A DNA stretch of 62,933 bases, the filler included, from Sphacelaria rigidula (Eukaryota): the NCBI GenBank assembly GCA_964200075.2. It is 10 parts of 10 records of this genome, joined end to end, with 100 filler letters (N's around TTAATTAATTAA, not from the genome) between each part and the next. Parts side by side here need not be neighbours in the genome. Positions count along the whole stretch, not along the records: positions 37,822 to 44,024 come from CAXNAA020021534.1; 9 more parts are not named here. One strand, given 5' to 3'. The stretch's first letter is position 1. Every line of letters starts with the position of its first letter. The notes below the pieces were generated by a model. It ran no database searches. It was not told where the DNA came from and saw nothing but the letters and a program-made list of their open reading frames with translations. Both the position numbers and the translations under genes were made by a program. Positions 38,055-41,000 of the stretch are shown piece after piece.

Positions 38055-41000
38055 TCAAGATCGTGCATTGATGTCGTGGGTACGATCGATATTGCGCTGA
38101 AGACCTCGACGTAAACCGTGTGACTTGAAGCGTTGCAGACACCAAGAACCGCGGGGTGCGGAAGGGCTGGTCGTGTAGAAATCGGGGCGAAGCTTGAGCT
38201 GAACTGGGCCAGGGTCGTCGAGGAAACGCACGATGTACGTGTCAACCGCGAGGGCATCGACGGAATGGATCTGACCTAGCCACCAGAGGTAATCGCTGCC
38301 CTTATACCATAAGTAAGCACCTTTTGGGAGCGGTTGTTGCTTTACGCGAAGTTTTTCGTCCCATTGTTTGGTGGGTACGAGTTCGTAACCATCAGCTACA
38401 AAACGTAGTCCTTTGTCGCGGTGGAGTTCGGGGGCTGCGGCGCCACGTCTCATGTTGCGATATCCCTTATTGTCAGCGAGCTGTTGCTGTGGGGATTGTG
38501 TCTAATAGAGAAGGATGGCACGACGGTGCAGGTGAAGGTCGAACTCGTGTTCCCAAGACGCACGCCGAAGACCTTGCCAGTGTGTCTTGTACATGACAGC
38601 AATTTTGCCGCCGGGGCCTCGAGCGATTTGGTGGCCGGAAATATGGGACACGGCCAAGCGGAGAGGTTGTTCAGTCACGTCATCGGTGGTAACGTGATAC
38701 GGTGGGGATTTTGTGGAATAGCTGCTAAGCACGTATTGGGTGAGACCTGCAGGCAGGTATTGAGGCATGTCCGTGGTGTCATGCGGGTTCGTGCAGGGCT
38801 TGCAACGATGCACAGAGACGCGAGATTTAGCGTCGTGCCGCTGGAGGTCACGAGGTAATTCGAGGTAGAGGAGTTTGTTGCCAACGGGTCTGCCGTCAGG
38901 AGATGTCAGCGAGGGTCCGACTATGAGGATCTTGAACGGACCCGTCCAATTGAGGGACAGTTTCGTCTTCAAGACTGCTGCCTGGGCAGCACGGTCAGCG
39001 CCTTGACGGATGGTGGACAAACTATTGTAGATCCAGACCCAATCGCCGATCTTCCAAGTAGGACGTTTGTGCATCAAGTTGTAGAGGGCACTATTGAATG
39101 TTTCAAGGCGTGAGACGTTGGTAGCGTGTTGTTCGCGCACCAAGGTGAAAGCTTTACGCTGACGAGCCCTGGCGAGGTCGTGGTAGGACATCTGATCCTG
39201 TTCCAGACCTTGGTGACCATCGAAGGTATGACGTTCGAAAACGGTGATGGGCAGACGAGGGTAGCGTCCAAGGTGCAGCTCGTTGGGCGAGAGGCCCGTA
39301 GCCGCGTTAACCGAATTGTTGTAAGACAACATGACATGCGAGAGATGGAGGTCCCAATCATTTTGTCGGTCGTTGATGACCATGGATAGCATTTGAGCCA
39401 TCGTGTGGTTCACACGTTTAGTCCCACTGTTACCGTTAGGGTGGTAGGCGCTCGTGGCAATTTTCCGAATGCCGAGGAGCTTGTACAAAGCATCCGAGAG
39501 GTCGGAGCAAAATTGTTGGCCATTGTCGGAGAGGAGCCGTTTTGGGCAGCCATAGTGCTGAATGTAGTCATGGACGACAATATCCGCTGTGCCGGCAGCA
39601 GTGAAATCGCTAGCAGTGACAGCATACATAGCCGCGTGACGGCTGAAGCGGTCGGTGAAGAGTAGAATGTAGGTATTACCACGGTCAGTTGGGTGTAGAG
39701 GGCCGAAGTAGTCGAATGATACGAAGTGACCAGGAGCGTTTGGGAGCTCCATGGAAATCACCGGCCATCGCACAGTCTGTCGAGAGGTTTTGCGAGCTTG
39801 GCATTTGAAACATGGGCGGACCCAAAAACGCGTGGATGCTTCCATGCCAATCCACCAATAAAAACGTTCAAGGAGCGCTAATGTTCGCGTGACGCATAAG
39901 TGGCAGGACAAATCAGAGTGACAGCCTTTCATGACCCACGGGCGCATCATGATAGGGACATAGATGCGGAGAGGGGCGTCATGACGCATAAGTGCCGAAG
40001 CGGCAGTTCTTACTGCGGCAGCCGTGCCCAACTGGGATTTGGGTCGACGAACAAGGGGATGAACGTCCTCATCAGTCGTGCAGACGGTACCTTTGCGTGC
40101 CAGCTCGAGCACATCAGAGGCGGCGGGAGCGGGTAAAGGGCCCACGGTGGTCAGGATTTCCGACGGGAAAGGGGTGGGGCAGTTAAGCCTTAAGTACCGC
40201 ATTGTCGCACAACAGAGCGGGTCCTGTTGTTGATCGCGAGCCCAATCGTGGTGAGAGTAGCTAGCGAGAAATTCCCGAAGTTGGCCTTCAGCCGGAGAGC
40301 CAACCAGGCACGGTGGCTCAGGAGGCGGTGGGACAGGCGAAGAAGCAGGTATGCCGACGTCAACGTGTTGACCCGGGAGCGGATCTGACGCATGTGTATC
40401 ACGAGCCAGAGGCGCAGGTGCTGGAAGATTCCCAGAAGGCGGCGTGGGTGTAGCGCGAACTGGTGAACGCGATCGGCGCGTTGGGCGCACAAGGGGCGCG
40501 GGCGGTGTTGGTACAACACTGGGCACACGGCCAGTTGTTGGAAGCGTGGTACGGTCCGTGGTGGTACAAGGCGGCGGCGGCGGCGACGTATTGCTACGCG
40601 CGGCCGGCGATGGTGGTAGAATTACAGCCCGCGAAGAACTCGCACGAGCTGCCGACCGAGAGCGCGTGTTGTCGGAGATGAGGTAAACAGTTGGTGGTGG
40701 CGGTGCCGAGATGTTCGCGCGAGGGTCGAGTGTGCGAAAGTCGGCAAAATCAGCAGCTGTGTGCGCTAAGCCATCCAAGACTGTACCAGGGGGAAGAGGG
40801 CGGGGACCACCCATGTGCAGACCTGTTTCGGGGCATTGTAGGTCGAGCGCGTAGATGGGCGTAGAAAAACGCCGGATGGGGTAGACGCCTGGTTCGTCAG
40901 GTTCAGTCAAGCGGCAAGCGGGACTGAAATCTACCGCTGTGGGAGGTAGGGGTAATCGCGAAAGAAGGTCAGCATTGCCGTTGGTTCTGCCCGGACGGTG

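Follow-up and report, generated by a model that had tools for sequence, protein, structure and literature searches.

In the analyzed window, 62,933 nucleotides of joined pieces from Sphacelaria rigidula (GCA_964200075.2), positions 38055–38670 on the minus strand hold the 3′ end of pol from a dead member of a Ty3/Gypsy (Metaviridae) long terminal repeat (LTR) retrotransposon family that is present in many copies. Its integrase continues beyond the GPF motif into a long conserved tail. With moderate confidence, we read this tail as a chromodomain with a reduced aromatic cage, followed by two helices and a Tudor/PWWP-like barrel, which together would tether the integrase to chromatin.

An earlier note on this DNA had reported that, after GPF, pol reads LAVSHISGHQ...VMYKTHWQGLRRASWEHEFDL, hits one TAG, and continues in the same frame for about 148 codons, and every element of that description is present in the sequence. 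The peptide stands immediately ahead of the single in-frame TAG, and the 148 codons past it (38058–38501), which hold the peptides KGAYLWYKGSDYLWWLGQIHS and DTYIVRFLDDPGPVQL, end at a TGA at 38055–38057. The chance of 148 stop-free codons is approximately 8 in 10,000 ((61/64)^148). A second copy on another contig, 20961–21200, was also said to keep the peptide and the stop while differing mostly at third codon positions, and this was borne out. Its last 77 codons align with those of the 38055 copy with the same stop position, and the 60 differences are distributed 11/9/40 over codon positions 1/2/3. The nonsynonymous rate (dN) was 0.138 and the synonymous rate (dS) was 1.68, giving a dN/dS of 0.08, which is not near 1, and the DNA likeness between the two copies collapses directly beyond the stop codon. 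Contigs from four public runs (X1, X3, X4, and X5; at least 88% likeness) were aligned to 38055–39100. Among the 39 variant places listed (57 further places being unlisted), 26 were third positions of the minus-strand frame, and no indel was present among the listed places. These patterns indicate that the integrase tail is coding and under purifying selection. Two antisense open reading frames (ORFs) on the plus strand, 38198–38596 and 38409–38858, were rejected as genes, as the variation between copies tracks the minus-strand frame.

To define the family, relatives of the tail were collected with HMMER over 1.84 billion representatives, with clusters at 50% identity. The search matched 681 clusters at E ≤ 0.001; tightening the cut-off to 1e-10 and to 1e-30 left 291 and 22, respectively. 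Most were fragments off short contigs. Among 185 retrieved relatives, 40 cover both the chromodomain and the barrel in a single alignment, and the others contain the N-terminal part only (58), the tail only (34), or a partial match (53). A search aimed at longer proteins gave 31 matches, 23 of which cover at least 89% of P0002, an uninterrupted relative of 237 amino acids (aa) that is 88% identical across the 148 codons and has a Trp at the place of the TAG. Pfam rve was found in 18 of these 31 proteins, three of which also had reverse transcriptase (RT), and only three of the 31 carry an organism name, namely P0181 (Ectocarpus sp. CCAP 1310/34) and two Undaria (“Undpi1”) gene models, all brown-algal. 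Two proteins, P0170 (1848 aa) and P0174 (1670 aa), run from RT through RNase H and integrase into the tail without interruption; both have a protease-like region ahead of RT, incomplete in P0174, and neither gave a Pfam match to NADAR. The 38055–42362 copy is colinear with P0170 through the TAG, with 54% identity over 738 columns. In run X1 alone, 1051 contigs aligned to 38055–39100 (259 at ≥99%, 358 at 95–99%, 347 at 90–95%, and 87 lower), indicating that the retrotransposon family has many copies. Judged from the sequences, the tail is conserved and fused to the integrase, as the earlier note had claimed, with P0170 and P0174 as uninterrupted examples.

The barrel was also seen at the C-terminus of non-pol proteins, namely P0112 (612 aa), P0113 (828 aa), P0058 (626 aa), and P0024 (373 aa). 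P0058 carries the chromodomain as well, P0024 has TIMP and WSC domains, and P0112 and P0113 are alike at the N-terminus, where the sequence by eye is apparently alanine/lysine-rich and of low complexity. They may have arisen by deletion or domestication, or they may be chimeric gene models. In P0186 (585 aa), the barrel comes straight after the integrase, and the chromodomain and linker between “YLPAG” and “Y..V” are missing, which would be explained by an internal deletion or by splicing in the gene model.

The structure of the tail was predicted with AlphaFold2 (AF2) on P0002. The model from an alignment of 111 sequences had a predicted local distance difference test (pLDDT) value of 85.7 and a predicted template modeling score of 0.78, whereas the single P0002 sequence gave a pLDDT of 35.7 and an unusable model. 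In module 1, strands 40–50, 56–64, and 71–74 are followed by helix 75–90 (block pLDDT 88–95 for residues 41–90). The linker, with helices 101–118 and 133–141 and strand 128–130 (block pLDDT 88–97 for residues 91–150), packs between the modules, and module 2 has strands 152–156, 162–170, 177–182, 188–192, and 209–214 (block pLDDT 91–98 for residues 151–210). In intact relatives, the ~210-residue tail after GPF is accordingly modeled as one compact unit.

Structure and profile searches assigned each module to a fold. The structure search VIA, which is independent of Foldseek, was run over 48,161 PDB representatives. Residues 35–92 matched Chp1 (Z 7.0, root-mean-square deviation (rmsd) 1.6 Å, 53/55 residues), HP1 (Z 6.7, 51/53), and Polycomb (Z 5.9, 31% identity), with rmsd values of 1.6–1.9 Å across 49–53 residues. 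Residues ~137–226 matched Spindlin-4 (Z 6.2), the UHRF1 tandem Tudor (5.7), PWWP (5.5), Agenet (5.5), the RDM15 Tudor (5.4), PHF20L1 (5.4), and the PHF19 Tudor (5.3; rmsd 2.0, 55/57 residues). Foldseek returned the PHF1, PHF19, and MTF2 Tudors with a probability of 1.00, TMt of ~0.6, rmsd of ~2 Å, and 22–26% identity (for PHF1, TMt 0.60 and rmsd 2.1), and its other rows included the Swi6 and Chp1 chromodomains and Spindlins. When the alignment profile was compared with all PDB sequences at E ≤ 10, all seven rows were chromodomains or the PHF19 Tudor: Swi6 (0.048), the PHF19 Tudor three times (0.056–0.082), and the MPP8 chromodomain three times (0.11–0.12), each on the expected module. No ESM Atlas score exceeded 0.81, and the Tudor and Spin/Ssty clusters scored 0.77; all lie under the 0.9 bar and are leads only. 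Foldseek against the BFVD viral models gave generic phage barrels only and was uninformative. From these results, module 1 is assigned a chromodomain fold with good confidence, and module 2 is an SH3-type barrel, most probably of the Tudor/PWWP/Agenet kind. A barrel of the Tudor/PWWP/SH3-like type, for which the earlier note had suggested profile and structure searches, was thus found with AF2, VIA, Foldseek, and the PDB profile.

The two modules differ in their aromatic residues. In the alignment of module 1 to Swi6, L38, W64, and L67 occupy the cage positions (HP1 Y24, W45, and Y48), with family frequencies of 60%, 82%, and 67%, respectively. According to the accessible text of PMC3350952, plant group II retrotransposon chromodomains and shadow chromodomains are defined by the absence of the first and third cage aromatics, the same two that module 1 lacks. 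No classical methyl-lysine cage is therefore expected in module 1.

For the barrel, the conserved aromatics are W154, Y155, W162, W163, Y178, F182, and W209 (58–80%). In the PHF19 alignment, W163 and F182 occupy two positions that we take to be cage residues of PHF19, and W154, Y155, W162, and Y178 are close to them in sequence; the third aligned position, that of the first cage Trp, is G/A and not aromatic. Like the PHF1/PHF19/MTF2 Tudors and PWWP, the barrel is five-stranded (rmsd ~2 Å over 43–55 residues, 18–26% identity), and its β1-loop-β2 segment LWYK-x4-LWWLG resembles the PWWP/Tudor pattern cited in the earlier note, VW.K....PWWP. Unlike them, it has an insertion between strands 4 and 5, extra helices ahead, and no Pfam match at threshold.

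Whether this architecture was already known had to be considered. In the accessible text of PMC12477816 (2025), four Gypsy lineages of Ectocarpus are described, three with “putative C-terminal chromodomains”, one of which also has NADAR (e.g., Gypsy-12_Ec32), and the fourth with Tudor, Gypsy-10_Ec32 being entered in a table with a “C-terminal TUDOR domain”. The chromodomain lineages lie outside the chromoviruses and oomycete Chronos by RT phylogeny (PMC12477816). Like the element described here, these are Ty3/Gypsy pol sequences with reader-like domains after the integrase in a brown-algal (stramenopile) setting. It is possible, though doubtful, that the tail is the one of either the Gypsy-10_Ec32 lineage or the NADAR-bearing lineage, for which a “putative chromodomain” is described, and that only the host is new. 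Such a view draws on these published fusions and on the Ectocarpus protein P0181, which contains NADAR (E 1.9e-40), RT, RNase H, and integrase and carries the same tail, approximately 50% identical to the 38055 tail. P0181 ties the 38055 tail to the NADAR lineage. However, the accessible text of PMC12477816 credits each lineage with one reader domain and never two, whereas the chromodomain and the Tudor-like barrel stand here in tandem in one tail. Full-text literature searches found no description of a chromodomain–Tudor tandem in an integrase, the consensus sequences and figures of PMC12477816 lying outside that comparison. P0181 also differs in having NADAR where the 38055–44023 element and P0170 have the protease-like region, and no Pfam match to NADAR was found on the pol or the upstream ORF of the 38055–44023 copy. 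The earlier note had not recognized the architecture from described Ty3/Gypsy clades; for the tandem, this agrees with the literature searches, but brown-algal lineages with a single chromodomain or Tudor have been published (PMC12477816, accessible text). The tandem tail would be a variant on these single-reader tails, with a function that we infer.

Chromoviruses (MAGGY, Tf1, and plant Tekay/Galadriel/Reina/CRM) likewise have a chromodomain fold fused at the integrase C-terminus, but without the extra conserved linker and barrel (~145 residues) found here after the chromodomain.

Several results weigh against the reading of the tail as a chromodomain and a Tudor/PWWP-like barrel that bind chromatin. 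Module 1 keeps only one of the three cage aromatics, the central Trp (L-W-L vs. Y-W-Y), and only two of the three cage positions in the PHF19 alignment are aromatic. In VIA, chromoshadow domains scored nearly as high for module 1 (Z 6.4–6.5), and non-reader SH3-like barrels matched the same region as the Tudors (TraI 5.9, Spt5 5.3, Ski2 5.2, and R67 DHFR 4.9). Every VIA Z value was below 8, a range possibly reflecting “only a common arrangement” according to the tool, and Foldseek of the tail model gave no match at E ≤ 0.001. Pfam found no family for the tail of the 38055 copy, P0002–P0005, or the 20961–21200 copy even at E ≤ 10, and in member-by-member searches of the 111 aligned sequences no chromodomain or barrel family reached threshold. 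Below threshold, there were matches to Chromo in 13 members (best 1.7e-4), Agenet in five, PWWP in one, and Tudor_2 in one; the bit scores for Chromo (PF00385) were 17.1 and 20.3, the latter for a different element, against a cut-off of 25.1. In addition, the tail structure is a prediction, and the 38055–44023 copy itself is nonfunctional.

Some of these results would fit a different function, in which module 2 is a generic SH3-like barrel that binds nucleic acid or protein (like the retroviral integrase C-terminal domain or KOW) and the chromodomain is a shadow-type protein-interaction module. The tail would then aid intasome assembly or bind DNA or a host factor, not histone marks. We consider this rather unlikely. 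The TraI, Spt5, Ski2, and R67 DHFR matches, the L-W-L cage, and the chromoshadow scores speak for it, as do an MMTV intasome chain among the Foldseek rows (probability 0.18) and a weak match to the myosin N-terminal SH3 (PF25369) in 11 of the 111 members. But in the PDB profile search the PHF19 Tudor made up all three barrel rows and no other barrel stood among the seven, and Royal-family domains were the most numerous barrel rows in VIA, led by Spindlin-4 with TraI second. The density of conserved aromatics (W154, Y155, W162, W163, Y178, and F182) is also unusual. Furthermore, Gypsy integrases usually have the GPF region as their C-terminal module, and this region already stands upstream. Of the two Royal-family readers proposed in the earlier note, the chromodomain fold and the SH3-type barrel were recovered; however, Royal membership is not separable from generic SH3-like barrels by Z value, and the chromodomain cage retains one aromatic of three.

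As for the TAG, the codon at place 38503 encoded Trp in all 30 aligned contigs (12, 1, 15, and 2 across the four runs), and the TAG column was W in 83% of the 86 covering sequences in the alignment of 111 relatives. In the AF2 model of P0002, the position falls within the C-terminal helix of module 1. Since 30 of 30 contigs read a Trp codon there, the TAG is private to the 38055–44023 copy, and it therefore marks no ORF boundary and does not signal readthrough. This agrees with the guess in the earlier note that the TAG was originally TGG, and the TAG, for which fixation in all copies had been raised as a check, occurs in this copy alone. We rejected the view that the 148 codons form a separate downstream ORF or a programmed readthrough product, not a plain continuation of the integrase, as extremely improbable: this copy does have the TAG and numerous short database proteins begin at tail Met106 or Met59, but the Trp codon of the other copies contradicts it, 40 of the 185 relatives span both modules without interruption, the TAG lies inside a helix of the chromodomain, the same copy has further lesions, and starts at a conserved Met are the usual output of ORF callers on contigs of ~1 kb.

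The further lesions are found upstream. The Pfam matches RVT_1, RT_RNaseH, Integrase_H2C2, and rve stand in Ty3/Gypsy order on the 1286-codon frame, and the protease match is weak (Peptidase_A2B in the upstream ORF 42608–44023, E 0.12, below threshold). An in-frame stop at 42608–42610 and a frame change cut this upstream ORF off from pol; in tblastn with P0170, residues 24–383 mapped to frame −2 and residues 272–922 to frame −1. With the TAG, the in-frame stop, and the frame change, the copy is thus broken in at least three places. The piece that holds the locus, 37822–44024, ends 233 bases past the tail stop on one side and within the upstream ORF on the other. No polypurine tract or LTR was seen in those 233 bases, and the piece is too short for an LTR pair.

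All or nearly all aligned contigs differ from this copy at 38344, 38394, 38431, 38469, 38532, 38542, 38548, 38624, 38643, and other places. Some of these private substitutions fall on codon positions 1 and 2, as with the Arg of AAARELHR in relatives, which is Pro in this copy. Many private substitutions are expected because the copy is decaying.

Returning to the reading of the tail as a chromodomain joined to a Tudor/PWWP-like barrel, we propose that it would tether the integration complex to chromatin and thereby bias the landing sites of new copies. In this proposal, the reading of methyl-lysine or histone tails would fall to the barrel, and the cage-poor chromodomain would assist in binding or serve as a scaffold. 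The barrel was ranked the likelier reader because a chromodomain with a poor cage, joined to a barrel rich in aromatics, would suit a host that lacks the classical chromodomain ligands. Any choice of integration site by the tail is purely conjectural. For comparison, LEDGF/p75 is a host protein that is bound by retroviral integrase, and its Royal-family barrel, which recognizes marked nucleosomes, brings the integrase to chosen chromatin. The tethering concept is the same, but the reader there is a host protein, whereas here the integrase polypeptide itself contains the reader-like barrel.

Chromatin readers captured by transposable elements are widespread, according to the accessible parts of two preprints (bioRxiv 10.1101/2021.11.30.470311; 10.64898/2026.05.21.726589). 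The MAGGY chromodomain binds H3K9me2/3 and was proposed to send integration to heterochromatin (PMC3350952, accessible text). In brown algae, as given in the accessible text of PMC13076208, there is no H3K27 methylation, no DNA methylation, and only sporadic H3K9 methylation; H3K4me3, H3K9ac, and H3K36me3 mark active chromatin, and H3K79me2 and H4K20me3 go with repression. Since brown algae are without H3K27 methylation and mostly without H3K9 methylation, the candidate marks would be H3K36me3, H4K20me3, and H3K79me2, the latter two linked to repression, and the fold does not discriminate among them. H3K36me3 is a candidate through the PHF1 and PHF19 Tudors, which are named with this mark in PDB titles among the Foldseek rows. 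A bolder version, which we put forward only tentatively, is that the tail may be a self-contained bivalent reader, in which the modules are locked by the two helices and combined histone features guide integration in a host without the H3K9/H3K27-methyl heterochromatin on which classical chromoviruses rely. The barrel would then be a built-in equivalent of the LEDGF PWWP that lentiviruses obtain from their host, and the tail would be a new integrase-targeting architecture shared by hundreds of element lineages among brown algae and related organisms.

The coordinates of the features are listed in Table 1. The window is made of pieces of approximately 6.2 kb joined by filler of the form N44-TTAATTAATTAA-N44, which has stops in all frames, at a spacing of roughly 6303 bases; an additional gap of 10 N lies at 45935–45944.

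Table 1. Positions of the integrase tail, the pol domains, and related copies in the window
Feature	Position	Strand	Basis or remark
C-terminal short helices and TGA stop (38055–38057)	38055–38123	−	H219–224, H229–234
Module 2, five-stranded SH3-type barrel (P0002 residues 151–215)	38124–38318	−	AF2 model
Linker (P0002 residues 93–150), YR.MR.GAA.REL...GY.LV	38319–38492	−	Conserved; two helices and a short strand predicted
Module 1, predicted chromodomain fold (P0002 residues 35–92)	38493–38666	−	Three strands and a C-terminal helix
In-frame TAG	38502–38504	−	Sole interruption of the frame
GPF motif	38934–38942	−	Read in sequence
Integrase core	~39438–39740	−	rve 8.5e-08
H2C2 zinc finger	~39786–39956	−	Integrase_H2C2 8e-12
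RNase H	~41016–41324	−	RT_RNaseH 4.7e-28
RT	~41610–42086	−	RVT_1 2.8e-24
Ty3/Gypsy pol ORF, 1285 codons without stop (1286 with stop, 38502–42362)	38505–42362	−	Pfam
Upstream ORF, open at piece edge	42608–44023	−	Low-complexity region and aspartic-protease-like segment LLDSGSPQAF
Second, truncated copy: barrel and C-terminus, 79 codons and TGA	20961–21200	+	Diverged subfamily, 75.5% DNA identity
Partial protease–RT copy, same family	15643–17079	+	93.4% identical to 41285–42727
Partial protease–RT copy, same family	17715–18812	+	94.5% identical to 41285–42727

Other related sequences were observed in the window. The two partial protease–RT copies have the same orientation and are ~0.6 kb apart, the first being spread over three frames; the arrangement at 15643–18812 is tandem or rearranged. 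In the piece neighboring the integrase-tail locus, 36918–37661 (plus strand) matches the protease region with 37.6% identity to P0170 residues 51–301 and belongs to a more distant related element. At 20008–20975 (minus strand) lies the tail of another Gypsy integrase, whose chromodomain looks classical (Pfam Chromo E 5.3e-4, below threshold), and this integrase, on the opposite strand, adjoins the second tail copy where that copy is cut short at 20961. Insertion of this neighbor or a rearrangement may have truncated that copy. Beside a piece boundary, an ORF at 44125–44200 translates to alternating Thr/His (THTHTH...), which, judged from the translation only, suggests a dinucleotide microsatellite.

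The choice of integration site decides how much harm an element does to its host, and it is also an engineering target in integrating vectors. The standard example of a targeting module that an element carries itself is the chromodomain tail; here, a second, Tudor-like module appears to be fused to it in a family of 681 clusters. Because Pfam detects neither module, domain-based surveys of reader capture would have missed this family. Its hosts have unusual chromatin, with no H3K27 or DNA methylation and little H3K9 methylation according to the accessible text of PMC13076208. With many near-identical copies of the element and brown-algal chromatin immunoprecipitation sequencing maps for H3K36me3, H3K79me2, and H4K20me3 (in the same accessible text), the hypothesis that the tail may target integration to marked chromatin is testable.

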